In this document: positions 47,481-64,000 of the stretch, piece after piece | Numbering within the stretch: position 1 is the first letter of the stretch | How the letters are laid out: every line of letters begins with the position of its first letter | Notes under the pieces: model-generated | What the model was told of the DNA's origin: nothing | Databases searched by the model: none | Seen by the model: only the letters and a program-made list of their open reading frames with translations | Position numbers and translations under genes: made by a program | From: a virus | Lineage: Duplodnaviria > Heunggongvirae > Uroviricota > Caudoviricetes | Virus record (IMG/VR): IMGVR_UViG_2645727901_000008 | Length of the DNA: 64,000 nucleotides | Strand: one strand, 5' to 3'

Positions 47481-47513
47481 TCTTCACCTCCTGGTTATCC
47501 TCCTATTGTCATC

Positions 47514-47528
47514 ACTTTGTTATTTCGT
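47514..47528 (-). promoter_or_regulatory. late-promoter-like motif (cactttgttatttcg)
   Basis: Motif 34-48 bp upstream of the PAAR gene start. Confidence 0.4.
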
Positions 47529-47559
47529 CATTCAAACGGAGAGTTAAATTTCGGAATAT

Positions 47560-47735: not shown

Positions 47736-47745
47736 GAGCAAGAAG

Positions 47746-48702
47746 ATGCGCATTTTTATCGATGATGGTTCAACCAATATCAAAATGCTGTGGGAGCACG
47801 ACGGGGAAACTCGCACTCACATCAGCCCTAACAGCTTTAAGCGCGGATGGTCAGCAACATTTGGTGCTGGCAAGCCATTTAACTATGTCATTGACGACGA
47901 AAAGTATTCGTATGATTTGATCTCGCCAGATGTTCTGCCGACGAATAACGTGGAATGGCAATACAGCCCGCTTAACGTCCTGGCTGTTCACCATGCCCTG
48001 CTGACAAGTGGCATTGAGCCGCAGGAAGTAGAAATTGTGGTTACGCTGCCACTGGCGGAGTTTTACGACGACGACGCGCAATACAATCTCGATAACATCG
48101 AGCGCAAGAAAGCCAGCCTTATGCGCCCCGTCACGCTGAATAAAGGCAATGTATTCACGATTAAGAAAGTTACGGTACGCCCGGAGTCTATTCCGGCAGG
48201 AATTGGTCTGTGCGACAATCTGAACCCTGCCCACTCTGTTCTTATCGTCGATTTGGGTGGAACTACCCTTGATGTTTCAATGGTCGCCGGGCAAATGACG
48301 GCAGTTTCCCGTGTTTTTGGCGATTCGAATCTTGGTGTATCACTGGTCACCAGGGAAGTAAGGCAAGCACTTGCCAGAGCCAATACCGAAACGTCAAATT
48401 ACAATGTCGATCAGCTCATTATTAACCGCCACGATGAAGATTATCTGAACGACAATATCAATGACCCATCAGCGGTTGGTGATGTGAAAAAGGCCATTGC
48501 CGCAAGCATTGACCGTCTGCGTACCCGCGTTCTTGATGTGATTGGCGACTTTAAAGGATATACGCATGTCATGGTGATCGGTGGTGGCGCACCGCTGGTG
48601 GCAGATGCAATTCGCGAGCAAGTTAATATTCGTGATGACCGTTTCTTCGTGGCGGATGACCCGCAACTTGCTCTTGTTCATGGCCTGAAAGCAATCGGTT
48701 AA
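47746..48702 (+). CDS. parM: plasmid segregation actin-like ATPase ParM
   Basis: MRIFIDDGSTNIK…ISPNSFKR…DLGGTTLD…GYTHVMVIGGGA is highly similar to R1 ParM as recalled. Confidence 0.9.
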   Translation: MRIFIDDGSTNIKMLWEHDGETRTHISPNSFKRGWSATFGAGKPFNYVIDDEKYSYDLISPDVLPTNNVEWQYSPLNVLAVHHALLTSGIEPQEVEIVVTLPLAEFYDDDAQYNLDNIERKKASLMRPVTLNKGNVFTIKKVTVRPESIPAGIGLCDNLNPAHSVLIVDLGGTTLDVSMVAGQMTAVSRVFGDSNLGVSLVTREVRQALARANTETSNYNVDQLIINRHDEDYLNDNINDPSAVGDVKKAIAASIDRLRTRVLDVIGDFKGYTHVMVIGGGAPLVADAIREQVNIRDDRFFVADDPQLALVHGLKAIG

Positions 48703-48709
48703 CGAGGTA

Positions 48710-49054
48710 ATGTCCATGTCTCAGGAACGTAAGAAAGTGATGATTTATCTTCGCCCAGAGGCTTATGCCAATGAAAAGGCGGCGAGCGAGAAGATAAAAA
48801 AACATAGCGATATGGCAAGAACCGCATTGTTGGCAGGGCTTGCGCTGGGAGAAGTCGATAGCAGGCTTCCAGGATTACTGGCTTCCCTGCTGACCGAAGA
48901 CAATAACCCGGAGCTGATCCGAAAAATGCTGGCATCCTTCCTGGAACTACCAGCTGCGGTTGAGGAGCGCCCTGCCTCCATTGAGCCAGTGAAGGAGCAA
49001 GTTGTTGCCAAAAGCGCGTCGGCGCGTAATCTTGCTGATTCTCTACCTGATTGA
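48710..49054 (+). CDS. parR: ParR-like centromere-binding adaptor
   Basis: 114-aa ORF 7 bp after parM, matching the R1 parMR order; followed by a terminator. Confidence 0.55.
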   Translation: MSMSQERKKVMIYLRPEAYANEKAASEKIKKHSDMARTALLAGLALGEVDSRLPGLLASLLTEDNNPELIRKMLASFLELPAAVEERPASIEPVKEQVVAKSASARNLADSLPD

Positions 49055-49073
49055 TGGTCAAAACTCTATTTTA

Positions 49074-49097
49074 AGGCTGCAAATTGCAGCCTTTTTT
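49074..49097 (+). terminator. intrinsic terminator after parR
   Basis: Hairpin ggctgc-aaatt-gcagcc followed by ttttttg. Confidence 0.6.
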
Positions 49098-49098
49098 G

Positions 49099-49320
49099 TT
49101 CCTTTTTGGTGTTAAAATGGCATCAAAGCGACACCAAATGGGAGTCGTTAATGTACTGGTGCATACTTGGTGCTAATTTAGTGCTATTCAGGCGCAAAAC
49201 GTGTACCAGTATCCATCGGATTTGATGTTATACTTCCGGCATTAAGAATGGTGCTATTGCTGTACCGTTGATGTGTAAATGTGGTGCTGTTTTAGTGTAA
49301 AAATAGAGCCAAAATAAAGC
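49099..49320 (+). repeat. centromere-like repeat region upstream of parA
   Basis: Dense (T)GGTGC(T) and GTACCAG-type repeats, including acttggtgctaatttagtgctatt, aatggtgctattgctgtacc and tgtggtgctgttttagtg. Confidence 0.5.
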
Positions 49321-49326
49321 CGAGGT

Positions 49327-49974
49327 ATGGACATGATTATCCTGGTAGCAAGTCAAAAGGGAGGCTGTGGCAAGTCAACCACCAGCGTCAATATTTGTGC
49401 CGAGCTGGCCCGAAAAAACAAAGATGTCGTCTTGATTGATGCTGATAAGCAGGGAACGGCAGCTCGATGGGCGTCAGACCGTAATTCGTCCGAAGTGACA
49501 CCAGTTATTCATTGCGTCCAGAAGTTTGGAAATATTCGAGAAACTCTGCTCGATCTTAACAATCGATATGAATACGTGGTTGTTGATACCGCAGGTCGTG
49601 ATAGTAAAGAGATGCGCACAGGTATAACGGCGGCGGATATTCTATTGGTTCCATTCAGGCCGTCTCAGCCAGATTTGGACACGCTGGCACACTTTGTTGA
49701 GGTGTTTGAAGAGGCTTTGGATCTGATGCCTAATCCCAATATTAAGGCGTGCGCAGTCTTAACTATGGCCCCGTCAAATCCGGTTGTGAATGAAGCAAAT
49801 GAGGCCAAAGAGTATCTGGCAGAATATCCGCAACTGAAATTGCTGAAAACCATTATTCGCGATCGCAAGGTTTACCGCGACTGCATGGCTGAAGGAAAGG
49901 GTGTTGTTGAGATGGATAACGGTAAGGCGAAAGGTGAAATTCAGATGTTAGTTAAGGAGTTGCTAAGTGATTAA
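49327..49974 (+). CDS. parA: small ParA/ParF-type partition ATPase
   Basis: Deviant Walker A (KGGCGKST) in VASQKGGCGKSTTSVN and a VVDTAGRD segment; 215 aa. Confidence 0.8.
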   Translation: MDMIILVASQKGGCGKSTTSVNICAELARKNKDVVLIDADKQGTAARWASDRNSSEVTPVIHCVQKFGNIRETLLDLNNRYEYVVVDTAGRDSKEMRTGITAADILLVPFRPSQPDLDTLAHFVEVFEEALDLMPNPNIKACAVLTMAPSNPVVNEANEAKEYLAEYPQLKLLKTIIRDRKVYRDCMAEGKGVVEMDNGKAKGEIQMLVKELLSD

Positions 49975-50251
49975 ACGTCGAGAACCAGCTAAAGCGCCTA
50001 AGGCTACTGATCCGGAACTTGAGCGAAGAATTGAAGAGTTCGCCAGCAAAGCGGATTTAATCCCGGATGAAATTACAACGGGGAAGGTGCTTGATAAAGA
50101 TGCGCCGCGCGACTTTAAATCCATACGCGTGAGCTTTAATGAATATGAGTACGGGGTGCTCGATGCGTTAAGCAAAAAGCTTAACCGCAGCAAATTGAAC
50201 CTGATTCGACATGCCATCCTCATGCTTGCTGAGTCAGAGGATGCTAAATGA
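49967..50251 (+). CDS. ParG-like small centromere-binding protein
   Basis: 94-aa ORF overlapping the parA stop; C-terminus IRVSFNEYEYGVLDALSKKLNRSKLNLIRHAI is compatible with a ribbon-helix-helix fold. Confidence 0.55.
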   Translation: MIKRREPAKAPKATDPELERRIEEFASKADLIPDEITTGKVLDKDAPRDFKSIRVSFNEYEYGVLDALSKKLNRSKLNLIRHAILMLAESEDAK

Positions 50252-50370
50252 TACCGATTTGATGCCTTATTGGCGTCTATCGTGTACCAGTGCAATAATG
50301 TGTCAAAGTGGTGCCATAATGGTGTTAATATACAGCCATATTGATATCAAATTGACACTGTATCGGCATC

Positions 50371-50396
50371 AAAAAGCCCCAGGCGGGGCTTTTTCT
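50371..50396. terminator. bidirectional intrinsic terminator
   Basis: aaaaagcccc-aggc-ggggctttttc between the parA/G locus and the convergent dam gene. Confidence 0.65.
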
Positions 50397-51300
50397 ATTT
50401 GAGCGTTGCAATGATATCGTTAGCGACTATTCGCGTGGATGCTTTGCATGACACGGACCGTCTGGCTGGCATGTGGTACAGCTTAAAACCGTTTCTTTCG
50501 TACAATTCGCGAATTTTTGGCGCGCCACTGTTTGTTATTACTATCTTTGCACCGCGCTGGTGGGCCGCCACCAACAGTGATACAAGCCGTTTTTGTTCAT
50601 CGAAAAGGAAGCTATTTCCTGAATAGCTGGTAAATCCCTCTGTATCTGGCAGCGGCTCATACGGCGGGTCACAAAAAATCACATCGTCTTTACCAGCCGC
50701 CTCGATGACACCAGCAAAGTCACCTGATACAAAGGAAGTGTTTTTGAGTACGTCATCAGCCAAAAATGCCTTCATCTCTGCATGTGGGAAGTAGGGCGCT
50801 TTGTATTTGCCATACCCCACGTTGAACTCGCCATTTTGGTTGTACCGCGTTACGCCATTAAAACAGTGACGATTAAGGTACAAAAATGCGGCAGCATGAT
50901 GTAGTTGGTCATACTTTCCTCTGTTAAATGCCTCACGCACTTCGAGGTAAGCGTCAGCGTTGTTGTAATTTTTGAAAAAACTATATGACAGCGTGACGAG
51001 CGAATGTCCTTCTCGCTGCAATGTCTGATAGAAGTTAATCAGGTCACCGTTAATATCATTAAGCAGGTTGTGGCGAAATCCTGCATTCGTAAATACGGAA
51101 CCGCCACCAACGAATGGTTCTATTAACCGCTTACCGTGTGGTAGATGCTCAAGCACTGTAGGCAATTCTGAGAATTTACCACCTACCCATTTGAATATCG
51201 GACGCTCATATTCATCCGGAGTCCGAATGGTGCGCATATAGCTAATTTCAGCCATCGTATCCTGTTTTTCTATGGCTATGCTTGCTATAGATTTACTCAT
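50395..51300 (-). CDS. dam: DNA adenine methyltransferase (Dam family)
   Basis: KWVGGK…EPFVGGGSVF…FLYLNRHCFNG…FCDPPYEP matches Dam motifs; ATG 51300 has SD aaggggg. Confidence 0.85.
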   Translation of the reverse strand: MSKSIASIAIEKQDTMAEISYMRTIRTPDEYERPIFKWVGGKFSELPTVLEHLPHGKRLIEPFVGGGSVFTNAGFRHNLLNDINGDLINFYQTLQREGHSLVTLSYSFFKNYNNADAYLEVREAFNRGKYDQLHHAAAFLYLNRHCFNGVTRYNQNGEFNVGYGKYKAPYFPHAEMKAFLADDVLKNTSFVSGDFAGVIEAAGKDDVIFCDPPYEPLPDTEGFTSYSGNSFLFDEQKRLVSLLVAAHQRGAKIVITNSGAPKIRELYERNGFKLYHMPARRSVSCKASTRIVANDIIATLK

Positions 51301-51913
51301 AGAGCACCCCCTTATTCGCTTCGAAAACTGCCTTTGCGAATCCATGTGGAGTAGCACTTCGAAAATTAGCCCTGTCAGGCCCTGGTGGCGCGGCATGGAT
51401 TCTGTTATCTGGCTTGCCTAATGATTCGTCCATTAGGGCATCAGGCATGACAAAGCCCTGGCCGCTCCAGAGGCATGTTTTTTTTGTGTAGTTATCTTCC
51501 TGACAATATGCAGTGAAGAAGTAAGGGTGAAAGATGTGATCTGGCTTACGCCAGAATGTCGATATTTTGCTGACCGGATTTTCAATCATGTACGGACAAC
51601 CGATCATCTTTGCAATGTCATAACACTGCCAGACAACCTGCATTGCTTTGAACTGGAAAACCGGATCTTTATTAGCCTTGTCCGAAAACCAGCGCGCGCC
51701 GGAAACAGCCAGGTCAGTACACGGTGGGAACCCGGCCAGAAACACGATGCGCTGCAAATTCTTACGGAGAAAAGCGTATACTTCATCGCTATCGATGATC
51801 GCACTAATACGCGTCAGAACGGCACCTGATTGCATCCGCTCGTCACTGGTCGATAAGTGCTGTGGATCGACGATAGCGGCATCGACACCGTATTCCAGCC
51901 AGGGGGCAACCAT
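51293..51913 (-). CDS. C5-cytosine-methyltransferase-like protein lacking an evident motif I
   Basis: Motif IV-like FLAGFPPCTDLAVSG and motif VI-like CPYMIENP are present. The track start at 52045 would overlap rdgC by about 88 nt; ATG 51913 has a strong SD (acggggg). No FxGxG seen in either version. Confidence 0.45.
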   Translation of the reverse strand: MVAPWLEYGVDAAIVDPQHLSTSDERMQSGAVLTRISAIIDSDEVYAFLRKNLQRIVFLAGFPPCTDLAVSGARWFSDKANKDPVFQFKAMQVVWQCYDIAKMIGCPYMIENPVSKISTFWRKPDHIFHPYFFTAYCQEDNYTKKTCLWSGQGFVMPDALMDESLGKPDNRIHAAPPGPDRANFRSATPHGFAKAVFEANKGVLYE

Positions 51914-51956
51914 TGCCCCCGTAAAATCACAAAGACTCACAACAAGCTGTCGGTTA

Positions 51957-52862
51957 TTATCGTTCTGCTTCACCGCCAATGGCCTCCACCAGCGCGTTAA
52001 ACAGTGCAGATAATTCGCCCGTAAAGAGCACGAAATCAGCATCAAATCGTTGTGCTACATCCTCCCGGTCGATATCGTCGTTCTGGTCATAGAGATCATC
52101 ACAGAATGTCAGGGCTTTGATACTCATATCATCGTTGACTCTGAACGACGCACGGTCCATCCAGTTAATTGCAACGGTCGTAGCTACTTTCCCCGCCTCA
52201 ATGTGAGACATAATCTCGTCGGACTGTAGATCAACTTTGTTGCAGCGAACGGCACCACCATTATCGAGCAGACCCTTTAATGTGGCGTCTTCACCTGCTG
52301 TAAATCCGGCAGGGAAGCCGCTTTTAAACCACTCGGTCATTGTAATTTCCAGCGGTTCGCGTGGTGTGAATGGAATGACAGGCAGGCTGCCGAGCGACTT
52401 TCGCAATAAAGCCAGCTGGTCCTCTGCCTTTTTGGCGCTGCTTGCCTCAACGAATACCAGATGGTTGCTGCGGTCGATCAGGATTTTGGCGAGTGATTTT
52501 CTCGTGAACGCGCGAGGCAAAAGTGAATGCAGGACTTCATCTTTAAGACTGTCTCTTTCCGTTTTCTTCAGCTTGCGGGCTTGCTCTTCTTCGAGTTTCA
52601 GGACTTTTTTCTGCAACTCTTCCTTGAGCACCTGCGAGGGGAGAATTTTTTCTTCTCGCTTATGCTGTATTAGCAGAAAACCCTGGTATTCATGGGTGAG
52701 GTTGTCACCAAGAACAGGTGTCCAACCGACTTTAGCTGTGTCCTGAGAACCGCAAGGAGTAAACACGAATTTGCTAAGAGCATCGGATACTTCTGCGGCA
52801 CTCCAGTTAACTTCACGTGAAAGACGATAGATGAAGATGTTTTTGAAAGCGACTGATCTCAT
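51957..52862 (-). CDS. rdgC: recombination-associated protein RdgC (P1 HrdC-like)
   Basis: …VYRLSR…FTPCGSQD…EEKILPS…[22 protein letters not shown]…[13 protein letters not shown]… is collinear with E. coli RdgC as recalled. Confidence 0.9.
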
Positions 52863-52871
52863 GTTTCACCA

Positions 52872-52910
52872 ATTGTGTTAGAAAATTCTATTCAATTATC
52901 TAACACAATT
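52872..52910. promoter_or_regulatory. palindromic pair of C1-operator-like motifs
   Basis: ccaattgtgttagaaaatt…aattatctaacacaattgg: two motif copies in inverted orientation directly upstream of the rdgC start. Confidence 0.5.
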
Positions 52911-52921
52911 GGATGTGTTTT

Positions 52922-53575
52922 CTATCCCTTCTTGAAATCAAAGTTGCTTGCGATGGCCTGGAAGGTGCCTCCAGCCTTGAAATCAATATTTTCGTCGGCT
53001 GTCACAGTAATGTTTTTGCCATTAACGCTGATGTTATCGGCTGATTTGACGTTAACACTCCCTCCCGCATTCACTACTACATCAGCCGGACCAATGATGT
53101 ATATCTGCCCTGATTCATTCATTCCAATCCTTGAGCCTGCTGCCGTATTCGCTATTTCATATCCACCGCCAGCCGTTCGCACTTCGAGCACATTGTTGCG
53201 GTGAATCACGAAATCTTTTGTCGCCGAAAATTGCGGGCGGGGAGGCGCTCCGTCTACTTCTGGTGGCGTCCAGCCGCTACCATTGCCTGACGCCTCCGGC
53301 GCGACGTTTGGTACTCCTCCAGGCGCATCCTGAGCTGCGCCAACTATCATTGGGCGTCTGGTATCAATTCGACCATTAACATCCAGATAAGGAAACTCTA
53401 CCCATACCAGGTCGCCTTTTACTGTAGGTACAAACGCGTTACCTATGGGTAACAGGTATTCTGCCCAGGGTAGATCGTCATCAGGAACGCCATTCCAGTC
53501 TGGTAAAACACGGACCTGAGCACGCATAAGCCCTGCCGGGTGCACAGTTCCAACAATTTGCGCTCTACGCTTCAT
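52922..53575 (-). CDS. baseplate spike/hub protein (gpV-like)
   Basis: The N-terminus resembles the gpV-type baseplate spike domain, followed by a repetitive beta-helix-like C-terminus (…VVNAGGSVNVKSADNISVNGKNITV…). Confidence 0.45.
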   Translation of the reverse strand: MKRRAQIVGTVHPAGLMRAQVRVLPDWNGVPDDDLPWAEYLLPIGNAFVPTVKGDLVWVEFPYLDVNGRIDTRRPMIVGAAQDAPGGVPNVAPEASGNGSGWTPPEVDGAPPRPQFSATKDFVIHRNNVLEVRTAGGGYEIANTAAGSRIGMNESGQIYIIGPADVVVNAGGSVNVKSADNISVNGKNITVTADENIDFKAGGTFQAIASNFDFKKG

Positions 53576-54552
53576 TTGTTCGGCACTCCTAATATCATTC
53601 GTGTTGTGTAGCCTACGCGGTCTTCAAAGTGCGCAACATTTTTTACTATCAGCTTGCGGGGCATTGATTCATCAATGCGGTTTTCCTGGTCATAGCGGTA
53701 TACGATAATCTCTATTACCATTCCCGGTTTTATATCCGGATTGCCTGCGACTTCTATATCCATTTTGGGGACGAGAGACAGCTGCATATTGCGAAGAGTT
53801 TCCATATCAGAATCGGATATATAACGCACTGGGAGTGAGCTATCGCCATATTCGACGTAGCCATCGGTCATGGAATACCCAACAAAACGATATTGATTCT
53901 TTGCTGTTGTCGCATGTTCCTGTTGGAGTAGGCGCATTTTGGACAAAGTGTATTCTGCTTTAGGGTTATTCCCCTCGTAGGTAAATGATGGCGTTTGCTT
54001 CATCAGATCAGCCAGGGTGTAAAAGTTAAATTCCCCACGGCATACCCAACATAATGCACCTTTGTCTCGCGCTATCTGCGAGAGCATTTTTGACGGTTTG
54101 TCACCGGCATTCAGATGATATGTAACTGCGCGTTTTAGCACGCTGCTGGTAATTTTAAGCTTGCCGGAATATGCCTTGAATATAGCGTCTGGTGTTTTGT
54201 TGGTATGTAAATTTGTGCGCGGGGAGGGGATCTTAAACCTGCGCACGTCTTCACTGACAGCAATAACGGTAACAACATCACCAGCCAGCATTGCAGACGT
54301 AACAAAGAAGTCTGTTTTAAAAGTGCCTGCATTACCGTTTGGATCGCCCATTTCAGCCACCAGCGATGCACCGTATTTGGCTTTCCAGTCATCAATTACG
54401 GTGCCGGTAGCGTCATGAATTTCCAGTTTTAGCAAAGGGGCTTTGAGGCTGGTTTTTTCTACATATACTGCGGTAAAAATCCAGTCTCGTGGCACTTTGT
54501 TATCGTTAATGAGCACTGACTGTAGAAAATATTGTTGTAACTCCTGGGCCAC
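53572..54552 (-). CDS. putative baseplate hub protein (gpD-like), hypothetical
   Basis: 326-aa ORF immediately upstream of and overlapping the gpV-like gene. Position-based. Confidence 0.35.
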   Translation of the reverse strand: MAQELQQYFLQSVLINDNKVPRDWIFTAVYVEKTSLKAPLLKLEIHDATGTVIDDWKAKYGASLVAEMGDPNGNAGTFKTDFFVTSAMLAGDVVTVIAVSEDVRRFKIPSPRTNLHTNKTPDAIFKAYSGKLKITSSVLKRAVTYHLNAGDKPSKMLSQIARDKGALCWVCRGEFNFYTLADLMKQTPSFTYEGNNPKAEYTLSKMRLLQQEHATTAKNQYRFVGYSMTDGYVEYGDSSLPVRYISDSDMETLRNMQLSLVPKMDIEVAGNPDIKPGMVIEIIVYRYDQENRIDESMPRKLIVKNVAHFEDRVGYTTRMILGVPNK

Positions 54553-54555
54553 TTA

Positions 54556-55323
54556 TCACCCCATAGATATCGAGGTTTCGGTAATAATACGTTTTGCGTC
54601 CAACTCCCATGCTGTGATCACGTCTGCAATCACACTTATCGGCGCTTGTGTGGCATAAATACGCTCTTCTCCAATTGGTGCCGAAACATCCGTAAATCCG
54701 ACTTCTTTGGCATCCTGTATCGAGCAAATCAGCGGGACCGGGACACGAACAAGGTGAGTGGTTGCTTCAAATTGTGTACCTGTCATCAGGCGAAGCCGTG
54801 CGCCCAGCGAATTACACATCAGACTCATGGTCGCTTTATCAGTTGACATTAACGTAACGTCATACGTCAGAATGGCCTGGGTGTATTCCAGTTCTGCTAA
54901 AGGCATTCCGGTATCCGGTTCGCAAAAACTGGCTACTTTTTTGCGGTCAATCTGCTGATCATCGTTGATATAATTGATATCCATAGTGCGTGAGATATTG
55001 ACCAGGGGGAGAGCATCCCGGTTAATGTTCTGGTTTTCAGGTTTTCTCCCTTGCCCGGCATTTGCGCGACGAACTGCTTTAAGAAACTCGATCGCATTGT
55101 CGAAACGGGCCACATAGACACGCTCTGCTGGTGGACGATTCAGGAATGACGCAAAGCGTTTTTCTTCCGGCGCGGGGGCCACCAGTAAGATATCAGAAAA
55201 GATATTGCTGATTAGCGTAGCAAACGCGTTATCCACGTTTTCAAAGCCCGTGGTCTGGAATTTCCCTGTGCGTGAGGTTTGCCATTCACCTGTTCGCGCC
55301 AGGAGGGTTTTATTTGAAGTCAT
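54556..55323 (-). CDS. hypothetical structural protein
   Basis: 255-aa ORF in the same late operon. Confidence 0.4.
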   Translation of the reverse strand: MTSNKTLLARTGEWQTSRTGKFQTTGFENVDNAFATLISNIFSDILLVAPAPEEKRFASFLNRPPAERVYVARFDNAIEFLKAVRRANAGQGRKPENQNINRDALPLVNISRTMDINYINDDQQIDRKKVASFCEPDTGMPLAELEYTQAILTYDVTLMSTDKATMSLMCNSLGARLRLMTGTQFEATTHLVRVPVPLICSIQDAKEVGFTDVSAPIGEERIYATQAPISVIADVITAWELDAKRIITETSISMG

Positions 55324-56111
55324 TCGATCACTCCGTTTTGAGTCGTATCAAAATTCCTGGCAGGTATGCAGTAGTAAAGCGAACCAACATGCTGTGTGCC
55401 GTAGCTAAAAATACGGTGCACGTACCACCAGCGGCGGGCTACGCCGTTTACCATCTCTTCATTCCATTCAAGAATTGATCCGACGGGGACGTTATTTGCT
55501 GCAATACGCAGAATCAGAACATCATCGGTTAAGCCATCCTGCTCACCGTCTGCGTCAATCGCATGGAAAGAGTCACGCCCGTCCGGGTTATCCAGCACAT
55601 AAACGATTTCAGGTTCCTGGTAAGTCAGTTCGCGCTGGTTGTTATCCAGTTCAGTGAATGACTCTTCTCCTGTTTCGTCGCTGACTACCCCATATGTGCC
55701 AACATCTGGTCGATATAAGAGAGCCTGAAACGCGTCTGGGCTGGATTCAATAATCAGCATCCAGTCTGCGCGGATTTGGTCGTTAAAGGCTTTATGCCCG
55801 TTATAGCGTGCTTTTAGCTGTGGAGTTGGTTCTCTGCCAGCCAGGGAAGGTGGAAGTATGGCTATATCTGATTCGGCAGCATCCGGAGTAAGGCCAGCGT
55901 TGCTATCAGCAAAATTATCATGGCTATCAGCTTTGGCGGCGGGTTGCTCTTCCAGAATGCTGAATGAATCCGAACCGGTATTGCCATGTTCCGGCGCGCC
56001 TCCTGCATTCGCTTCAATCGGCGCTGGCGTTTCTCTCTGCGTGCTGTCATGTTCTGACTCATTACTTGCCAGGTTTGCATCGTCAGCAAACCATTCGTCA
56101 AAACGGCCCAT
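55320..56111 (-). CDS. hypothetical acidic protein
   Basis: Track ORF 55320..56153; ATG 56111 (MGRFDEW…) has SD gagg at good spacing and sits 52-62 bp from the late-type motif. Confidence 0.4.
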   Translation of the reverse strand: MGRFDEWFADDANLASNESEHDSTQRETPAPIEANAGGAPEHGNTGSDSFSILEEQPAAKADSHDNFADSNAGLTPDAAESDIAILPPSLAGREPTPQLKARYNGHKAFNDQIRADWMLIIESSPDAFQALLYRPDVGTYGVVSDETGEESFTELDNNQRELTYQEPEIVYVLDNPDGRDSFHAIDADGEQDGLTDDVLILRIAANNVPVGSILEWNEEMVNGVARRWWYVHRIFSYGTQHVGSLYYCIPARNFDTTQNGVIE

Positions 56112-56162
56112 AAGCATCCTCAAAGGTCGATTTATCAGGTATCGAGGGTGCATTGTCTGGAG

Positions 56163-56173
56163 ATTGTGATTTC
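56163..56173 (-). promoter_or_regulatory. late-promoter-like motif (attgtgatttc)
   Basis: Core TTGTGATTTC upstream of the 55320..56111 operon. Confidence 0.35.
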
Positions 56174-56181
56174 AATTCATA

Positions 56182-56226
56182 TCCCAACATGGGACTAAAG
56201 TGCTTTACATTGTCCCATATTGGGAC
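56182..56226 (+). promoter_or_regulatory. two palindromic operators in the higBA promoter
   Basis: TCCCA-ACA-TGGGA (56182..56194) and GTCCCA-TAT-TGGGAC (56212..56226), with a -10-like TATACT at 56231..56236. Confidence 0.5.
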
Positions 56227-56256
56227 TACTATACTTTCAGAGAGAAGGAATCTGTG

Positions 56257-56559
56257 ATGAAAATAATTTCGGTAAAAACACTAAGGGATTTCTGGGCGAA
56301 GAATCCCGATGCAGAACAGCCATTAAAGGCATGGGTTGATGAAGCAACAAAGGCTGACTGGAAAAATCCGGCTGAGATCAAAGAACAGTACCGGACAGCC
56401 AGCATCCTTAAAAACAGGCGCGTGGTGTTCAATATTAAGGGAAATGATTACAGGTTAATTGTCGCAATTGCTTATCAGCGAGGATGGATGTTCGTTAAGT
56501 TTATTGGAACACATAAGGAATACGATGCCATTGAAGCGGATACAATAGAACTGGAGTAA
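56257..56559 (+). CDS. higB: HigB toxin (RelE/ParE superfamily)
   Basis: MKIISVKTLRDFWAKNPDAEQ…VVFNIKGNDYRLIVAIAYQRGWMFVKFIGTHKEYD; the THKEYD motif and fold pattern match E. coli HigB as recalled; SD gaagga. Confidence 0.85.
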   Translation: MKIISVKTLRDFWAKNPDAEQPLKAWVDEATKADWKNPAEIKEQYRTASILKNRRVVFNIKGNDYRLIVAIAYQRGWMFVKFIGTHKEYDAIEADTIELE

Positions 56560-56562
56560 ATC

Positions 56563-56922
56563 ATGAACATTAAACCTATCCGTACAGAACAAGATTATGA
56601 GGCCGCACTGCGTGCGGTCGAACCGATGTTCGATAACGAACCGGAAATGAACACACCGGAAGGCGATTTCTTTGAAGTAATGTGCCTGCTCATTGAAGAG
56701 TACGAGAAAAAGCATTACCCAATTGAGCCACCATCACCTATTGAAGCCATTAAATTCCGTATGGAACAGCAAGGGCTGACCGTGAAGGATCTGGAACCGG
56801 CGATTGGTAAGTCAAATCGAGTTTACGAAGTGCTTAATGGGACACGAAATTTGACGTTACCTATGATTCGTCGTTTACATGCCCAGTTTGGTATTCCACT
56901 GGAAAGTCTGGTTGGTGTTTAA
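56563..56922 (+). CDS. higA: HigA antitoxin (HTH)
   Basis: 119 aa, 3 bp after higB; C-terminal HTH-like segment LTVKDLEPAIGKSNRVYEVLNG. Confidence 0.8.
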   Translation: MNIKPIRTEQDYEAALRAVEPMFDNEPEMNTPEGDFFEVMCLLIEEYEKKHYPIEPPSPIEAIKFRMEQQGLTVKDLEPAIGKSNRVYEVLNGTRNLTLPMIRRLHAQFGIPLESLVGV

Positions 56923-56984
56923 GTTTGGCGGTCTGGAGGACCGCTTTTTATCTAAAATAAAAATTAGAAGGTTTGATAGCTTGT

Positions 56985-57722
56985 ATGGGCAAAAATTCAT
57001 CAACAGAAAACACATCTACAATTGACTCAATCAAGGGCACAATGGATGAAGCCATAAAAGATAAATTATTTAATAAATTATTTGCATATGTGGTGGTTTC
57101 ATTTTTTGTCGTTAATTGGCAAGAAATACTAATTTTGTTTAAATCTAAATATGATATATACACAACACTGTCTATAGTATGGGTAGGGGATAAATATCAA
57201 ATCCCTTATTTTGGAACCTTCATTGTATCTCCGTTTTTAGCTCACTTTGTGATGCCGTTTATATATGGCACTATTGCGTCCATAGTGATGCCTTATATTA
57301 CTATGCGTATATCAAAACTCACTGGTAGAAATTATGCGCAAATAAGATACATTGACCATGAATTTGACTCAGAAGAGAAAGCAAGAGTAAAGGCGTTGCT
57401 GAGAAACCTAAAGAAAAAAGAGGAAGAGCTTTTAAAATTAGAGGAACAAATAGAAGGTCAACAAAAAATACTGAATACAATCGAAGAAAAGAAGAGAGAG
57501 ATTGAGAGTGCCAGAGTGGCTCTGTATCACGGTATAAAAGTAATTGTTGATATATATAAAGCAAAAGATAAAAGGATTTCCACCAAAGAAGATTTTGCCG
57601 ATTTATTAAAAGCAATTGAAGAAAGTGATTTTTATAAAGACACTGGGTTGTGGGGTATTAATAAATTAATAGATGACGTGGAGACAATATATGAGTCTCA
57701 ATCGACATCAAAGGACAAGTAA
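56985..57722 (+). CDS. membrane protein with C-terminal coiled coil (cargo)
   Basis: Very AT-rich; hydrophobic helices FAYVVVSFFVVNW and FIVSPFLAHFVMPFIYGTIASIVMPYI, then a K/E-rich coiled coil. Start codon uncertain. Confidence 0.5.
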   Translation: MGKNSSTENTSTIDSIKGTMDEAIKDKLFNKLFAYVVVSFFVVNWQEILILFKSKYDIYTTLSIVWVGDKYQIPYFGTFIVSPFLAHFVMPFIYGTIASIVMPYITMRISKLTGRNYAQIRYIDHEFDSEEKARVKALLRNLKKKEEELLKLEEQIEGQQKILNTIEEKKREIESARVALYHGIKVIVDIYKAKDKRISTKEDFADLLKAIEESDFYKDTGLWGINKLIDDVETIYESQSTSKDK

Positions 57723-57726
57723 TATA

Positions 57727-57752
57727 AAAGGCGGGATAACCGCCTTTGTTGT
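57727..57752. terminator. bidirectional intrinsic terminator
   Basis: aaaggcgg-gataa-ccgccttt between convergent genes. Confidence 0.55.
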
Positions 57753-57755
57753 AAA

Positions 57756-58952
57756 TTAAGAACCTTTCTTCACATACTCCATGAACATTTTTTCAGCTTG
57801 TGCAGGTGGTGTTCCTGCCATGACCAGCGCATCAATGAACGCCTGCTTCTTCAGTGCGAACTGATCGGCCAGGCGTTGCTGAAGCTCCTTGTTTTTCTGT
57901 TTCTCACGTTGCAACGCCGCTTCTTTTGCTGCCGCCCGTTTTTTCTGTGCGTCTGACAACTTTCTGGCCTTGGTCAGTTGGTCACGTAGCTTGTCAATCT
58001 TGCCGTTGTCCTTTGCCAGTTTTGTGCTTAAAGCGGCCTGGCGCTTCTGATAGAGCCTCCATTCGCGCTTGGCAGCGTCAACGTTTGTTTTACTGTTGCG
58101 ATTGCGATTAAACTCCCTCTCGTCTTCTTTTGAGAAGTGTTTGGTTGTACGGCGGCGATCGTCACCAAATGCAATTTGCGTTGCGGCCTTTTGTAACGCA
58201 CGAGCAATACTCATTTGCCAACTAGCGGACTGTAACCGCGTCATTGAGTGGATCACGTGTTTACAGGCGACGCCTTGTAGCTTAGGGTTACGAACTTTTG
58301 GATAGGCGTATTCTTTTGGCGGGGCCAGGGCAAAGTTACCCGCAGTAGCGATGTAACGATACCAGTATTGATGACGACCACAGTCACAATCGAAAGACAC
58401 CCGCCCGGCGCACAGTGATTTAGTGATTTTCAGAGCTGATTTATCGTCTTCTGCGATGTCATCGACCATCTGATCCCATTCTTCAAAGCGTATCCGGACG
58501 ATATGGTGCTGGTGGACGGATATATCCGATGCTTCTACGCGGATATGAATCACGTTGTGGCGAAGAGATACGGGTGTAGCTCTTTTGATACCAGATCCGT
58601 CATCCACGGCGTTATTTGCACGCTTAATATCGATTGCCTGGCTGGATGCCACCAGCTGGGCGTATGTGATGCCAGCCGTCTTGCTGTCATATTTTTCGCG
58701 TGTTTTACTCCGTAGCTTTTCGAAACCTTTCAGGTCGTCTCGCGTGAAGAACGTGCCGCCTTTTTTCTTCCCTAACTTGAGAATATCTTCGGCGGATTTG
58801 TTCCTCAGTCTACCTGGCGTCAGCGTCCGGTGAGCTTGTCGGCGCTTACGGGTTTGTTCTTTCCTGATAAGGTCGAATAAACGCGTGAAGTCCTTAGAGG
58901 ACAGGCCGTCAGTGATATAGCGCCCGTCCTGGTTTTTCAGGAAATCAGGCAT
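57756..58952 (-). CDS. Cys/His-motif protein with lysine-rich coiled-coil C-terminus
   Basis: 398 aa with FDCDCGRH…CKHVIH, a possible zinc-binding motif, and a K/A/Q-rich coiled coil; start overlaps the upstream gene by 8 nt. Confidence 0.5.
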   Translation of the reverse strand: MPDFLKNQDGRYITDGLSSKDFTRLFDLIRKEQTRKRRQAHRTLTPGRLRNKSAEDILKLGKKKGGTFFTRDDLKGFEKLRSKTREKYDSKTAGITYAQLVASSQAIDIKRANNAVDDGSGIKRATPVSLRHNVIHIRVEASDISVHQHHIVRIRFEEWDQMVDDIAEDDKSALKITKSLCAGRVSFDCDCGRHQYWYRYIATAGNFALAPPKEYAYPKVRNPKLQGVACKHVIHSMTRLQSASWQMSIARALQKAATQIAFGDDRRRTTKHFSKEDEREFNRNRNSKTNVDAAKREWRLYQKRQAALSTKLAKDNGKIDKLRDQLTKARKLSDAQKKRAAAKEAALQREKQKNKELQQRLADQFALKKQAFIDALVMAGTPPAQAEKMFMEYVKKGS

Positions 58953-59274
58953 TTTCTATCTCCGGTTCCGCGCTCGCGTAATCACGGATCTTGTTCCTCA
59001 GCCATGCCACATCAGGAAGAGTTAACGTGGTCCCGGCGGGCATTTCTTCCATTTCTGACTCATGGCCCACCAGCACCCGGAATACCCAGCGCAAATCTGC
59101 ATTGCCATACGCCCTGTAGGCTGCAAGGTCTGAACGATATACTTCATCAATCTTTATCGTGTACTGGAAATTATCAGAGTGATACTCCGATACCCGCTTA
59201 ATCATTTCCTGGTGAAACAGCGCACGAAAAATATCGTCTTCAATGTACCTATCGTCGAGTCTGCTATAGCCCAT
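58945..59274 (-). CDS. hypothetical protein
   Basis: 109-aa ORF translationally coupled to the 398-aa gene. Confidence 0.45.
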   Translation of the reverse strand: MGYSRLDDRYIEDDIFRALFHQEMIKRVSEYHSDNFQYTIKIDEVYRSDLAAYRAYGNADLRWVFRVLVGHESEMEEMPAGTTLTLPDVAWLRNKIRDYASAEPEIENA

Positions 59275-59467
59275 AACAAAGCCTCTCAGTCATAACATGG
59301 GGGAAACTGTATGCAGGGTGTGAAATGCGAGAAACAGACAGGCCACCAGTTCAGGGGGATGTGGTTCATAAATCCCCTCACTGGTGACAAGTGACTTTCA
59401 TTAATCTTTATGCGGGGGCCAGCTTCATTTGCTGGCATTAGATTAAAAATTAAACGGAGTGAATGAC

Positions 59468-59601
59468 ATGGATGTTATTCTAGAATTGTTAAAGCTTATT
59501 GATCTGTTTATGAACGCCTCATTGACCACTCAAATACTGGCGTCAATATTTTTGTTACTCTTCTACCTGGTATTGAGGGAGTTAACAAAGCTACTAATGT
59601 G
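59468..59601 (+). CDS. unannotated small hydrophobic peptide (44 aa)
   Basis: Below the ORF-track cutoff. ATG 59468 with SD ggag; encodes MDVILELLKLIDLFMNASLTTQILASIFLLLFYLVLRELTKLLM, one predicted TM helix; the stop abuts a convergent gene. Confidence 0.3.
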
Positions 59602-59602
59602 A

Positions 59603-60256
59603 TCAAAGTATCACGGTATCTTCATCAACTTCTTTCCCAGCCAGTGACTTTGGCTGGGAGGTGCCTGCTTTAACTTTTTCATGCCCAATAATGGAAAGGA
59701 ACGAAGCGAGTATGCCTGTTTTTTGCTCTTTCTCGACTGTACCGGTCATCTGCTCTACATAATCTGCACTGGCAACGTTGTGGTATACGGTCGCGTAGCA
59801 ACACAGGATCATCAGAATATGCTCCGGCCTGATATCCTGCCAGTTCACCCTGTAGACTTCTTCTCCGTTACCGTTGTATTCGGTATCAACGATAGAGTCG
59901 GGGATTTCGAAAGCACCTTTGTTATTTTGCGGCAGGGATAATAGTTTCTGGAGTTTTAACTCTCTGTATCTTTCCATCCCGACGATGATTGCTGCTCTTC
60001 CATCGGCATGACGGGTCTTGAGAGTCACCTGACTTGCTCCGGTGCCAGCGGAGATCGTTGGCGTAATTTCGTCTACCAGTACCTTAAATTTGCTTTTCCG
60101 CAGGGCTGCTATAGCTGGAGGAATTTTTTGCTTTTGCTCCAATGCTGACGCGGGAAGGGGTTTTACTTCGTTAATAATGAGAGCACCGTCTTTCAGTATT
60201 GCAGTGAGCATTTGAGGCTTGCTGGTGGTCAGGCTGAATATTGCGATCTTTTCCAT
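59603..60256 (-). CDS. hypothetical protein
   Basis: About 218 aa from ATG 60256 (MEKIAIF…) with strong SD ggaggaagg; a 15-mer late-type motif lies 145 bp upstream. Confidence 0.5.
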   Translation of the reverse strand: MEKIAIFSLTTSKPQMLTAILKDGALIINEVKPLPASALEQKQKIPPAIAALRKSKFKVLVDEITPTISAGTGASQVTLKTRHADGRAAIIVGMERYRELKLQKLLSLPQNNKGAFEIPDSIVDTEYNGNGEEVYRVNWQDIRPEHILMILCCYATVYHNVASADYVEQMTGTVEKEQKTGILASFLSIIGHEKVKAGTSQPKSLAGKEVDEDTVIL

Positions 60257-60524: not shown

Positions 60525-61148
60525 ATGAAGGATGGTGTAGTGAAGTTAAGGGTTTTAGGGGCCGCGCTCGCGGCTATGTTGGGATGCGTATCTGCTAATA
60601 CTGCCAATGCAACTGCGTTACCTGCACAATTCAGGGCAGGGCAGCAGGTTATGAATAATGCTGGTGGGGATCATTCACAAGCGGCCATTATGGACTTTTG
60701 CAAGAGGGAGGGCATTCCATTACGGCCTGTTGGAACTCAGTTTATTGGTAAAACTGACTTTTGCGTTTTTGCATATACAGCATATCTGACGGACAAAGCT
60801 ATAACAAAAACAGGTTATTCAACCAAAGATACTCTTTCCAGATTAAGTCAGGGATGGCAGCAATTCGAAGTGTATCGCCAGCAAGGATTAGGTGAGTTAT
60901 TGCAACCACTTTTTATGCTTGCGTTGGTGCCCGAGGGGCAGCAATTTTTGGTTAAAAAGGGAATGCTTCGCCAAAGTGATATTGCCGGGTTCGATAGCAT
61001 GATGGCTTATGAGCGCAAACTAACCGAGCAGCGAAATAAAAAACCATCTGCTTCATGTGTGCAAAGTAAAACAGCAGAATACAGTGCAGTAGCCGGGCCT
61101 TTAGCCAAACAAATGGCAGAGCAATGGTGTAAAAAATACGGGCAATAA
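60525..61148 (+). CDS. secreted/periplasmic protein (signal peptide)
   Basis: Signal peptide KLRVLGAALAAMLGCVSANTANA; likely GTG start at 60540 with SD aagga; possible lipobox MLGC. Confidence 0.5.
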   Translation: MKDGVVKLRVLGAALAAMLGCVSANTANATALPAQFRAGQQVMNNAGGDHSQAAIMDFCKREGIPLRPVGTQFIGKTDFCVFAYTAYLTDKAITKTGYSTKDTLSRLSQGWQQFEVYRQQGLGELLQPLFMLALVPEGQQFLVKKGMLRQSDIAGFDSMMAYERKLTEQRNKKPSASCVQSKTAEYSAVAGPLAKQMAEQWCKKYGQ

Positions 61149-61168
61149 GTTACGCAGCGGAGGCAGAA

Positions 61169-61561
61169 TTGAAAAGATTGACTATTGCTTTACTGGCGTC
61201 TTTCCCTTTGATCGCGAGCGCCGGAAATTTACAAGTTAAGTGCGGTCGGTTTGATATAAAAATCTATCCAGATGCCATATTTCTGAATGGGAATAAGGTT
61301 GATAACGTACACCGAAAAACTAAATCTGACGTAATGAGCTATGTGTTCCAGGAGTATGCGGAGATGGGGGGAACTTACACGCTGTACTCGCTGGATGTTC
61401 CTTCTCGCGGTGATATGACATTATCCCATCAATGGCAGAACGCCGATGGCGAAGCTCTGCGCGAAGTTAAAACAGAAAAATGCGGCACTTTCCATTCTTT
61501 TAAAGGGAAAGTGCCAAATGTTAAATCTGTGCTTGAAAAACAGCGCGCAGGTGATTTTTAA
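61169..61561 (+). CDS. secreted small protein (signal peptide)
   Basis: MKRLTIALLASFPLIASA signal peptide; 130 aa; followed by a terminator. Confidence 0.5.
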   Translation: MKRLTIALLASFPLIASAGNLQVKCGRFDIKIYPDAIFLNGNKVDNVHRKTKSDVMSYVFQEYAEMGGTYTLYSLDVPSRGDMTLSHQWQNADGEALREVKTEKCGTFHSFKGKVPNVKSVLEKQRAGDF

Positions 61562-61649: not shown

Positions 61650-62279
61650 TCATTTTTGTCGGATCTTTTCCAGCATATTTAATTCATTATCACTTTCTGC
61701 TGCTGAGACGGTTGGCCTCACATTTCCGAAATATTTCCTGTGAGACTCATGACTTATGTATTCACCGACAGTTTCATTCTTGAATATACGAATTTGACAT
61801 ATGCGAGATCCAACAATAAGTTCTACAGGGCTATTCCCATGATTAAATAACTCTAAAGATATACAGCCTCTGTACCCTGGTTGTATCATGGTATTTAATG
61901 AAAGACCAAGCCTTGTATAGCTGCTTCTGGACAATACATCAGCGTAGCAATCTGGTGGCAAACAAACATATTCTAATGTTGTTGCCAGTACCACTTGATT
62001 CGGGTAAACAATGAATCTATCCCCAAGATCTCTCCTTGTTTCCTGGAAAAATGTTCTGATTGGTTGATGAGTATCATTGTTTTTTGATGGAATTAACTCT
62101 ATTGACGGCTTCCTTGTCATAATAGACACTAAAAAATCGTAACCAAGTCTAAGGTCTATGGTGAAGTTCCCAATTTGGTTTTTATTTAGAAGAGGTTCAA
62201 TGAACAACGACTCAGGTTCTTCTGATTCATAATATTGCAGCAATTCAGCTTTGCTTAGGAGATTCATTGTGCACTCCAT
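61650..62279 (-). CDS. dCTP deaminase family (Dcd / dUTPase-fold) protein
   Basis: IDLRLGYDF…LSRSSYTRLGLSL…IQPGYRGCISLELFNHGNSPVELIVGSRICQIRIF is collinear with E. coli Dcd motifs as recalled, including the S/R and E catalytic positions. Last gene of a coupled operon; AT-rich. Confidence 0.75.
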   Translation of the reverse strand: MECTMNLLSKAELLQYYESEEPESLFIEPLLNKNQIGNFTIDLRLGYDFLVSIMTRKPSIELIPSKNNDTHQPIRTFFQETRRDLGDRFIVYPNQVVLATTLEYVCLPPDCYADVLSRSSYTRLGLSLNTMIQPGYRGCISLELFNHGNSPVELIVGSRICQIRIFKNETVGEYISHESHRKYFGNVRPTVSAAESDNELNMLEKIRQK

Positions 62280-63337
62280 TTTTCAAGAATCATTACGTTT
62301 CGAATCGATTTTTCAACCAAATCATTTATAGTTTTTTCTATGGCTTCTTGTGACAACCCAGACCATATACCCGTAGGTTTTTCCCATTCAGAGCATAAGT
62401 ACTGCCAGCTGCTGTTAATAAAAGCATGCATTTCATTGTGGTCGCGAATAACAAAAGGACGCACATTATCAAAAGCTGATTTCACATCAAGCAAAGGTGT
62501 CGGCAATGTCAAACAAGGAGAAATAATCTGCCCACCATTATGTAAGGCTGATATCACAGCATTGAACATGCCAACAACTGGATTTTCCACTTTGTTCAAA
62601 AAGTCGCTTACAATTTTAACTCTATCTTCTGTGGATGGGTGAGTATAGCTTGCAGGATGAGAGCCAGCTAATTTGTATAAGAAATCTACCCCACTTTTTC
62701 CAATAAATTGGGCACTAAATAGATCTGCAAAATATTCTCTGCAATGATTTATCCAAATAACATCAGGTAGATTACTCCATTCTGGTCCAGGAAGTGTGCC
62801 TTTGTCCTTGGAACGATAGTTAAGACAGGCAAGCTCAGAAATACCTTTGCTAATATCAACGAAATGTCCCAATTCGTGATATAAAGGTATAGAGCATAAT
62901 GGTCGTCTTCTGTACATTTCAGGTAATGAAATCTGAATTAATTCGACATCGAATTTGACATTTAAAACTTCGTCAAATAAAGAATACAAATTCTTGTTTA
63001 CAGACTTAAAATAAAACCCATGCATATCTGGAGATAGGGCTGTGGTTATAAGTGTTTTTTCACTTATCCATTTTTTACAGGCATCATTTAAGCAATAGAC
63101 AATCTCGTAGGGAATTTTCTTTGTAGTACTGCCAGTGAAAAAATTAACTGCATCGGTGATAAAAAAAGTACAATCCGCAATTATTTTATCAGCAACATTC
63201 ACATGGTTTTCATAGAGCTTATCCACCGCTTCTTGTAGAACAGCAAGATATTCATGCATGTCTTTAGAAAAATAGGGAGATTCTGATATCTCCCTTAGCT
63301 TATTTCGAACTAATGTAAGTTGTGTAAATGCAAGCAT
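62264..63337 (-). CDS. HExxH zinc-metallopeptidase-like protein (ImmA/IrrE-like core)
   Basis: 357 aa with LYHELGHFVD and a downstream HCREYFADLF element resembling the ImmA/IrrE E..A..FA motif; start and stop overlap the neighbouring genes. Confidence 0.6.
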   Translation of the reverse strand: MLAFTQLTLVRNKLREISESPYFSKDMHEYLAVLQEAVDKLYENHVNVADKIIADCTFFITDAVNFFTGSTTKKIPYEIVYCLNDACKKWISEKTLITTALSPDMHGFYFKSVNKNLYSLFDEVLNVKFDVELIQISLPEMYRRRPLCSIPLYHELGHFVDISKGISELACLNYRSKDKGTLPGPEWSNLPDVIWINHCREYFADLFSAQFIGKSGVDFLYKLAGSHPASYTHPSTEDRVKIVSDFLNKVENPVVGMFNAVISALHNGGQIISPCLTLPTPLLDVKSAFDNVRPFVIRDHNEMHAFINSSWQYLCSEWEKPTGIWSGLSQEAIEKTINDLVEKSIRNVMILEKWSAQ

Positions 63338-63642
63338 TAAATGTACTCTAATACATTCCGGGCCATTACGGGTTCTAACATATCTTCGCTAGTTACTTTG
63401 GTTAGCACCTGGGCGAGCGCCTTAGTGTGGCGTATCTCTACCGCGAGCGAGATGGACTCTCTGTGAGAAGGAATCTGTAATTGATCACCTTTATCTACAC
63501 TTAAGTTTGAGGCTTCTCTGATCACCTCATAAACCCGTAACTTTAACTGCTGTGACACTTCTTGTTGAGATGCTATAAGCTGAAGTACAGTCTTGATCAA
63601 CTTCAAAGAATCAGAAGCTTGCTGAGGAACCGCATAGAGCAT
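63337..63642 (-). CDS. small protein, first gene of the peptidase-Dcd operon
   Basis: 101 aa with strong SD aaggagg; its stop overlaps the peptidase ATG by 1 nt; no motif recognised. Confidence 0.5.
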   Translation of the reverse strand: MLYAVPQQASDSLKLIKTVLQLIASQQEVSQQLKLRVYEVIREASNLSVDKGDQLQIPSHRESISLAVEIRHTKALAQVLTKVTSEDMLEPVMARNVLEYI

Positions 63643-63779
63643 AACCCCTCCTTTCCCTTATCTATAACCGCTTTCTTTTTTCTGTGTATGTTAAAAGTAG
63701 AAGCGGTTTTTACCTTTTGTAATATATATAGTGTCTAAAACTAACTTTGGCACTATATATGGCATGATATCTATGTTTT

Positions 63780-63821
63780 AAAGACACAAAAGCTCTGTTA
63801 AAACAGAGCTTTTGTGTCTTT
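63780..63821. repeat. 42-bp perfect palindrome upstream of the peptidase-Dcd operon
   Basis: aaagacacaaaagctctgtt-aa-aacagagcttttgtgtcttt with 20-bp arms, flanked by T/A runs; terminator or operator. Confidence 0.6.
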
Positions 63822-64000
63822 AACTTGATCATTTTCTCGCTGAAGTGTATGTCAGGCTTAGCTCATAATCAAGTTGCTTCCAAGCTAAAAATGAGCTAGC
63901 TCCCTGAAACACTAAGAGCGGGGTGTTTCATTTATTAGCGTTGGGCCTGACGGTGTGTAGGTGAATTTTAGCTCATTACTCGATAACGACGGGGAATGGA

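Follow-up and report, generated by a model that had tools for sequence, protein, structure and literature searches.

A small protein, zinc peptidase and Dcd-type deaminase module on a D6-like phage-plasmid: a candidate nucleotide-depletion defence system

Introduction

Near one edge of a stretch of 64,000 nucleotides (nt; hereafter the window) from the IMG/VR virus record IMGVR_UViG_2645727901_000008 (Caudoviricetes), three overlapping minus-strand genes encode a small helical protein (gene 1), a zinc peptidase (gene 2) and a Dcd-family deoxycytidine triphosphate (dCTP) deaminase (gene 3). What would be gained by making an enzyme of deoxynucleotide metabolism in step with a peptidase on a phage-related replicon? 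The reading that we favour is that the three genes are a peptidase-controlled, Dcd-mediated nucleotide-depletion defence of the abortive-infection type. We place the probability of this reading, in which both the function and the mechanism are inferred, at about 0.5.

Three genes that travel together

Homologous loci were collected by scanning one genome per species with the peptidase motifs, which yielded 57 loci. A Dcd homologue, 40-81% identical, starts at most about 20 nt from the stop codon of the peptidase gene in 55 of them, and one of the two loci without it is cut by the end of its contig. On the other side, a homologue of the small protein, of about 105 amino acids (aa), abuts the start of the peptidase gene in 50 of the 57 loci, as judged with a hidden Markov model (HMM); the others are contig-end fragments or decayed loci. 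Since Dcd follows and the small protein precedes the peptidase with this regularity, the three genes are a conserved triad and not a chance neighbourhood. Many genomes contain homologues of each gene at E < 1e-20, and thus the three open reading frames (ORFs) are real genes rather than chance ORFs.

The hosts of the triad include Gamma-, Beta-, Alpha- and Deltaproteobacteria, Nitrospirota, Leptospirales and Bacteroidota. In one lineage, peptidase and Dcd are naturally fused into a single protein of 631 aa (P0223, L074:1745-3945); this fusion is found on two metagenomic contigs, and a small-protein gene ahead of it again overlaps it in TAATG.

The three proteins diverge at different rates. Dcd homologues have a median identity of 54% to the window protein; the value drops to 34% for the peptidase and to 25% for the small protein, the fastest-evolving of the three. 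In all 50 comparable loci, Dcd is more conserved than the peptidase. Such a pattern would fit a conserved effector accompanied by diversifying sensors or regulators. A single complete locus lacks the deaminase: in Ferruginibacter (L055:5490-9537), a diverged small protein and peptidase lie beside a convergent type I Bub (bacterial ubiquitination-like) operon.

The deaminase

Judged from its sequence, the product of gene 3 is a Dcd-family dCTP deaminase with a dUTPase-like fold and an intact set of active-site residues. It matches the Pfam family PF22769 (E = 1.3e-30; 107 bits, cutoff 27) and the NCBIfam dCTP-deaminase equivalog TIGR02274 (113.3 bits, cutoff 92.8), and its best Dcd match in the PDB has E = 1.9e-16. 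The RSSxxR motif and the glutamate of LELFN align with S111, R115 and E138 of Escherichia coli Dcd and are invariant in 54 module Dcds, so that the catalytic Ser, Arg and Glu claimed for this protein by the first-pass annotation are indeed in place. The longer blocks RSSy.rLg, qPG..Gc...El.N and RKY....RP..s....D are invariant across the same 54 proteins. Identity to E. coli Dcd is 34.5%, and the module Dcds are set apart as a clade by a tRR motif and a C-terminal extension of approximately 12-20 aa.

The peptidase

The 357-aa product of gene 2 carries HELGH at residues 154-158, followed by E201-x-x-A-D205, an element that is invariant in the family; both had been pointed out from the sequence beforehand. 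In an alignment of 33 homologues, reaching down to 32% identity, the invariant residues are H154, E155, H158, E201, D205, H233, P234 and R239, which is the HExxH...ExxAD...HPxxxxR pattern of M48-type gluzincins. The sole Pfam signal for the window protein is also to M48 (PF01435), over residues 198-243, with a score of 16.1 bits that falls below the gathering score of 20.3. When all 33 members are scanned against Pfam, a weak M48 match appears in 20 (best E 2.5e-5) and a match to the M34 family ATLF in 11.

The same protein had been annotated as ImmA/IrrE-like (M78), an assignment that does not hold. M78 (PF06114) gives no match at E <= 0.1 in any of the 33 members, nor at E <= 1 for the window protein; the neighbouring small protein matches no helix-turn-helix (HTH) profile; and the motifs, together with the weak profile matches, favour M48. 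We therefore reject an ImmA/IrrE identity.

The AlphaFold2 model of the peptidase is of high confidence, with a predicted local distance difference test score (pLDDT) of 92.5 and a predicted template-modelling score of 0.91. A Foldseek search of the PDB with this model returns nothing significant, and sequence and profile searches of the PDB give chance-level matches only. The protein contains no membrane segment, and has additional N- and C-terminal helical domains that include an invariant NDLVEKSIRN helix. We are thus confident in predicting a soluble zinc peptidase, closest to M48. Both enzymes of the module look active, as the Ser, Arg and Glu of Dcd are kept in 54 of 54 proteins and the HExxH, Glu ligand and HP....R of the peptidase in 33 of 33.

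The small protein

A word-indexed search recovers just 10-18 homologues of the gene 1 product, and the family was defined instead from the genome loci, by an HMM built on the upstream ORFs. The AlphaFold2 model (pLDDT 84.8) is a helical bundle with residues 1-10 disordered, and the first residues of this disordered N-terminus (M-L-A/Y-A) are conserved. The protein has no significant Pfam match, no match to an HTH profile and no significant Foldseek match in the PDB. Many of the small proteins from outside the enterobacteria end in -LAA, -VAA, -AAA or -IAA (for example those of L010, L017, L025, L026, L041, L045 and L048); the window protein and its enterobacterial relatives have no C-terminal Ala tail.

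Accessory cargo of a D6-like phage-plasmid

Positions 40000-60000 of the window are 96.9% identical to Escherichia phage D6, a P1-related phage, and the module region matches plasmids of 90-95 kb from E. coli and Salmonella. The module is present in 12 of 67 matching plasmids, the remainder sharing no more than the 164-nt flank. Among 5,426 complete E. coli genomes it occurs in eight, on a plasmid every time, and it is found in none of 50,697 deposited phage genomes, D6 included, by either DNA or protein search. The corresponding slot in D6, between mat and the pmgF/ant/icd genes, is occupied by a simB-like superimmunity gene. Because few plasmids and genomes carry the module, and the D6 slot holds this other gene, the module is accessory cargo of a D6-like phage-plasmid, occupying a variable slot that serves for genes of the exclusion type, and is not part of the phage core.

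The family is rare, since 1.84 billion proteins contain only 490 clusters of it at 50% identity, and the triad is also found on plasmids of Bradyrhizobium, Agrobacterium, Shinella, Rhizobium and Emticicia. This sporadic distribution, the absence from D6 and the low identity to E. coli Dcd rule out a core phage gene or a housekeeping Dcd, in agreement with the earlier view of the genes as cargo.

Two plus-strand genes lie between mat and the module (60525-61561), encoding proteins of 207 and 130 aa whose N-termini resemble signal peptides. Each matches a PHROGs family without an assigned function (phrog_12786 and phrog_13864), and, given the simB-like gene at this position in D6, both may be exclusion cargo. 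Sister D6-like plasmids carry one or two RelE/HigA toxin-antitoxin pairs among their tail genes (L001:2902-3613; L002:2936-3647 and 6296-6867), and one has a TnpB gene (L002:15564-16772); the D6-like backbone therefore has several small cargo slots.

Genomic neighbourhoods

Outside the phage-plasmids, the triad is often found on mobile elements or next to known defence genes. In Proteus mirabilis it directly follows QatABCD inside an integrase/AlpA island; in Dickeya it also occupies an integrase/AlpA island; in Rhizobium phaseoli an integrase flanks it on one side and a type I restriction-modification system on the other; and in Geobacter it adjoins an IS200 element.

Among 280 neighbouring ORFs at 50 loci, a Pfam scan gave 15 matches to ThiF, 12 to Peptidase_M78 and nine to Prok-JAB, as well as Multi_ubiq, TniQ, RES, AbiV, Fic, BrxL and integrases. 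Of these neighbours, the ThiF, JAB, Multi_ubiq and DUF6527 genes belong to Bub (6E/DUF6527) operons, whereas the pairs of M78 and HTH genes encode regulators of the CapH/CapP type. Genes of one or the other kind lie within 6 kb of the triad in about 19 of the 57 loci, in at least seven arrangements and in several phyla. In Rhizobiales, BubAB-BubCD-BubE are followed on the same strand, after a gap of about 57 nt, by the genes for the small protein, peptidase and Dcd. In Methylophilus and Pedobacter, CapH/CapP lie upstream of the triad and face a Bub operon, and in Polaromonas the Bub operon is downstream. Bub and CapH/CapP proteins have no tblastn match in the window, and therefore the triad can stand alone. 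In Beta- and Deltaproteobacteria, a conserved basic protein of 58 aa (MATNPPKGDGHR...) is repeatedly encoded next to the triad and to Bub and CapH/CapP genes (Table 1).

According to the Bub literature there are 544 such operons, frequently associated with CapH/CapP, with targets that are not known and with no phage protection demonstrated. The accessible part of that literature mentions neither a deaminase nor a link to the triad.

Gene layout and upstream leader

The three minus-strand ORFs are present where the first-pass annotation had placed them (63337-63642, 62264-63337 and 61650-62279), and direct reading of the sequence upholds its description of a coupled operon with overlaps at both junctions and one strong ribosome-binding site. 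The AAGGAGG Shine-Dalgarno sequence is spaced 4 nt from the ATG of gene 1. Genes 1 and 2 meet in TAATG (63335-63339), where one base is common to the stop and start codons. Gene 3 overlaps gene 2 by 16 nt if it starts at its first ATG (62279), and by 4 nt, ATGA (62264-62267), if it starts at its second. The second start is the likelier on sequence comparison, because homologues begin M-x-L-L and the RefSeq annotation has a length of 618 nt. The region is also, as had been noted, more AT-rich than the backbone, with a GC content of 0.35-0.39 over the module against 0.44-0.51 nearby.

A leader of approximately 215 nt ahead of gene 1 has been conserved along with the module in Pantoea, Proteus and Dickeya. 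This leader is absent from D6 and from L002, a sister plasmid without the module. A -35-like box at its 5' end is invariant in all four enterobacterial copies, first base excepted. A perfect palindrome with 22-nt arms is found in the module-bearing plasmids and in the Pantoea copy and is missing from L002 and D6; in Proteus, eight of its pairs are altered on both arms with symmetry retained. In a second inverted repeat, one pair changes from A-U to G-C on both arms in two of four sequences. No Rfam family reaches its gathering score in a scan of the leader. The palindromes are candidates for either a protein operator or a hairpin in the 5' untranslated region.

Table 1. Positions of the module genes and leader elements in the window, and of associated genes in homologous loci (L numbers).
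Feature	Position	Strand	Description
Gene 1	63337..63642	-	Small helical protein of 101 aa, orphan family
Gene 2	62264..63337	-	Predicted soluble zinc metallopeptidase (gluzincin) of 357 aa, nearest family M48
Gene 3	61650..62267	-	Predicted Dcd-family dCTP deaminase, dUTPase-like fold, 205 aa from ATG 62267
Gene 3, alternative start	ATG 62279 (61650-62279)	-	Would encode 209 aa
Ribosome-binding site of gene 1	63647..63653	-	AAGGAGG, read directly from the sequence
(C/T)TGACATACACT box (TTGACATACACT-like)	63844..63855	-	Resembles a -35 element; 5' end of the conserved leader
Perfect palindrome, 22-nt arms	63778..63823		Upstream leader; travels with the module
Inverted repeat 2, 15-nt arms	63724..63760		Overlaps a -10-like TATAGT; conserved with the module
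Loci with Bub or CapH/CapP beside the triad	L036:599-7604; L072:5386-11669; L040:1532-7517; L017:6001-11503
58-aa basic protein copies	L004:5059-5226; L005:4343-4501; L021:8246-8413; L072:8333-8509

Proposed function and alternatives

The strictness of the triad, its natural fusion, the preserved active sites of both enzymes, the relative rates of divergence and the location on mobile elements or in defence islands agree with one another, and suggest a self-contained conflict module in which Dcd is the effector and the other two proteins are its control. The earlier proposal of a candidate defence system is much strengthened by the strict conservation of the triad and by its island contexts.

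In the scheme that we favour, translational coupling would supply genes 1 and 2, as the control layer, in a fixed ratio to Dcd, and the three proteins would probably form a complex in which either Dcd or the peptidase is held off. On infection, a cue would allow the peptidase to cut one of two candidates, the small protein or the C-terminal extension specific to this clade of Dcd, so turning the deaminase on. Released Dcd would then convert the dCTP pool into deoxyuridine triphosphate or monophosphate (dUTP or dUMP), and the loss of dCTP would starve phage DNA synthesis and may push uracil into DNA. We infer three elements of this scheme in particular: the protein that is cleaved, the trigger and the depletion of dCTP.

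Several considerations weigh against it. Dcd is a housekeeping activity in E. coli and is not obviously toxic there, and dCTP depletion would require either loss of feedback by deoxythymidine triphosphate (dTTP) or high Dcd activity. The association with CapH/CapP and Bub fits a response to DNA damage or stress as well as it fits anti-phage immunity. Finally, some copies have ordinary-looking chromosomal surroundings, as in Aeromonas, where the triad is a small insertion after uvrD with no defence genes near.

If not a defence, the module might be an addiction cassette of the toxin-antitoxin type, in which a toxic Dcd would be countered by the small protein as a labile antitoxin, which in turn the dedicated peptidase would degrade, the whole serving mainly to keep a plasmid or island in its lineage. 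A small upstream gene with coupled downstream genes on plasmids and islands has the look of such a cassette; palindromes that overlap a promoter-like site travel with it, as in autoregulated toxin-antitoxin operons; several RelE/HigA pairs are nearby on the same plasmids; and the -LAA, -VAA and -AAA C-termini of many small proteins resemble ssrA-type ClpXP degradation tags. However, the enterobacterial small proteins do not have this tail, the small protein of the window has no recognisable DNA-binding fold and Dcd activity does not of itself kill E. coli, so that we regard addiction as unlikely; toxin-antitoxin and abortive-infection roles can, in any case, coexist. A second possibility takes as its starting point the place of Dcd in pyrimidine metabolism, where it is an enzyme of dTTP synthesis. 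The module would then adjust nucleotide pools under DNA damage or stress, with an induction of the CapH/CapP type, the peptidase processing a partner and dCTP being shifted towards dUMP and dTTP synthesis during replication stress. Its recurrence beside CapH+CapP and Bub operons is in keeping with this, and the discoverers of Bub and CapH/CapP-type pathways themselves allow that these may serve stress responses rather than immunity. Nevertheless, a module that is sporadic, mobile, island-borne and rare, whose hosts already possess a housekeeping dcd and which adjoins Qat and restriction-modification systems, makes a stress function doubtful.

The roles of the two enzymes might also be reversed, with the peptidase as an effector that cleaves an essential host or phage protein and Dcd as a nucleotide sensor or minor second effector. 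Cleavage of EF-Tu by the Lit protease is a precedent; the peptidase active site is invariant, and the Ferruginibacter locus keeps the small protein and peptidase beside a Bub operon in the absence of Dcd. Yet Dcd is the most conserved component, is present in nearly every locus and has its catalytic triad intact, and therefore catalysis rather than mere binding is indicated, whereas the peptidase evolves faster; this arrangement seems to us very improbable. Least credible is that a phage-plasmid uses Dcd to raise its supply of dUMP and dTTP, or otherwise alters the pools, for its own replication. PHROGs does contain phage dCTP deaminase families, and the module Dcd matches phrog_1663, but most copies of the triad are in bacterial chromosomes and non-phage plasmids, deposited phage genomes are without it, and such a role gives no account of why Dcd has a peptidase and a small protein as obligatory partners.

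The Bub linkage permits a further, speculative extension that we hold to be improbable. The triad would be an output or partner arm of Bub pathways, in which the adjacent E1, E2 and DUF6527 proteins conjugate a ubiquitin-like protein onto the small protein, the peptidase or Dcd, under CapH/CapP control by DNA damage, and so license the destruction of dCTP; the stand-alone copies of enterobacteria and phage-plasmids would then be Bub-independent and self-triggering. Were this true, it would give a first functional handle on Bub operons along with a protease-gated, dUTPase-fold form of nucleotide-depletion immunity. Regardless, the recurrent linkage to Bub and CapH/CapP is a concrete lead on the targets of those uncharacterised pathways. 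The nucleotide-depletion defence that we favour is itself easily testable, as the module is only about 2 kb long and the phage-plasmid that carries it in E. coli and Salmonella is spread by infection.

Relation to known systems

None of the 5,027 defence-protein models of PADLOC v2 (2023) is matched by Dcd or the peptidase, and the small protein gives only a chance-level match to Csx1 (E = 0.015); a check of the three proteins against known systems, which had been called for, thus finds no counterpart in that library. The PHROGs families that the module proteins match are annotated only as 'unknown function'. In the searchable full-text literature, including DefensePredictor and other discovery surveys, the papers on Bub and CapK/S, and Iyer 2006, no description of the triad was found. 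The accessions of the three proteins are likewise absent from searchable papers and from the examined text of the DefensePredictor supplements. DefensePredictor has 'a dUTPase' domain and a few proteins named 'dCTP deaminase' only as unvalidated predictions, in a different type of operon.

Protease-activated immune effectors follow the same logic. Bacterial gasdermins with their proteases, and the CRISPR-associated CalpL and Csx29, also place a dedicated protease beside a latent effector, although the protease families and effectors differ and cleavage in the present module is presumed. Pairs of ImmA/IrrE (M78) and HTH proteins, such as CapH/CapP and the RmrA of RosmerTA, embody a similar concept, that of a metallopeptidase which is activated by a signal and thereby controls an immune or toxic module, but the module peptidase has no M78 match and its partner is not an HTH protein; true M78/HTH pairs adjoin the triad in many genomes. 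In comparison with established M48 peptidases (HtpX, BepA and Ste24; PDB 6sar and 3c37), the module peptidase scores below threshold, is predicted to be soluble and has extra helical domains.

The module Dcd shares its family and its catalytic Ser, Arg and Glu with the housekeeping enzyme (dcd of E. coli, PDB 1xs1) and with the bifunctional Dcd-Dut (PDB 4xjc and 1ogh). It differs from housekeeping Dcd in its divergent sequence, its tRR motif and C-terminal extension, its coupling to partners and its status as a mobile accessory rather than a core gene.

That bacteria can resist phages by deaminating dCTP is established (Tal et al., 'Antiviral defense via nucleotide depletion in bacteria'). The enzyme responsible, the defensive dCTP deaminase ('dCTPdeaminase' in DefenseFinder and PADLOC) or AvcD, is a single protein with an N-terminal kinase and a zinc cytidine-deaminase fold, an architecture that agrees with the earlier statement that the known nucleotide-depletion deaminases use a different fold. 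Chemistry and outcome are presumed to be shared, namely deamination of deoxycytidine nucleotides and depletion of dCTP in infection, whereas the module enzyme is a metal-independent Dcd with a dUTPase-like fold and two obligatory partner genes. On the favoured reading, nucleotide-depletion immunity would here use a new enzyme fold under a new layer of control, and the module matches no described system that was found. If it is defensive, it would bring a second, unrelated enzyme fold to dCTP-depletion immunity, together with a control logic new to nucleotide-depleting systems, that of a dedicated zinc peptidase and a small orphan protein.

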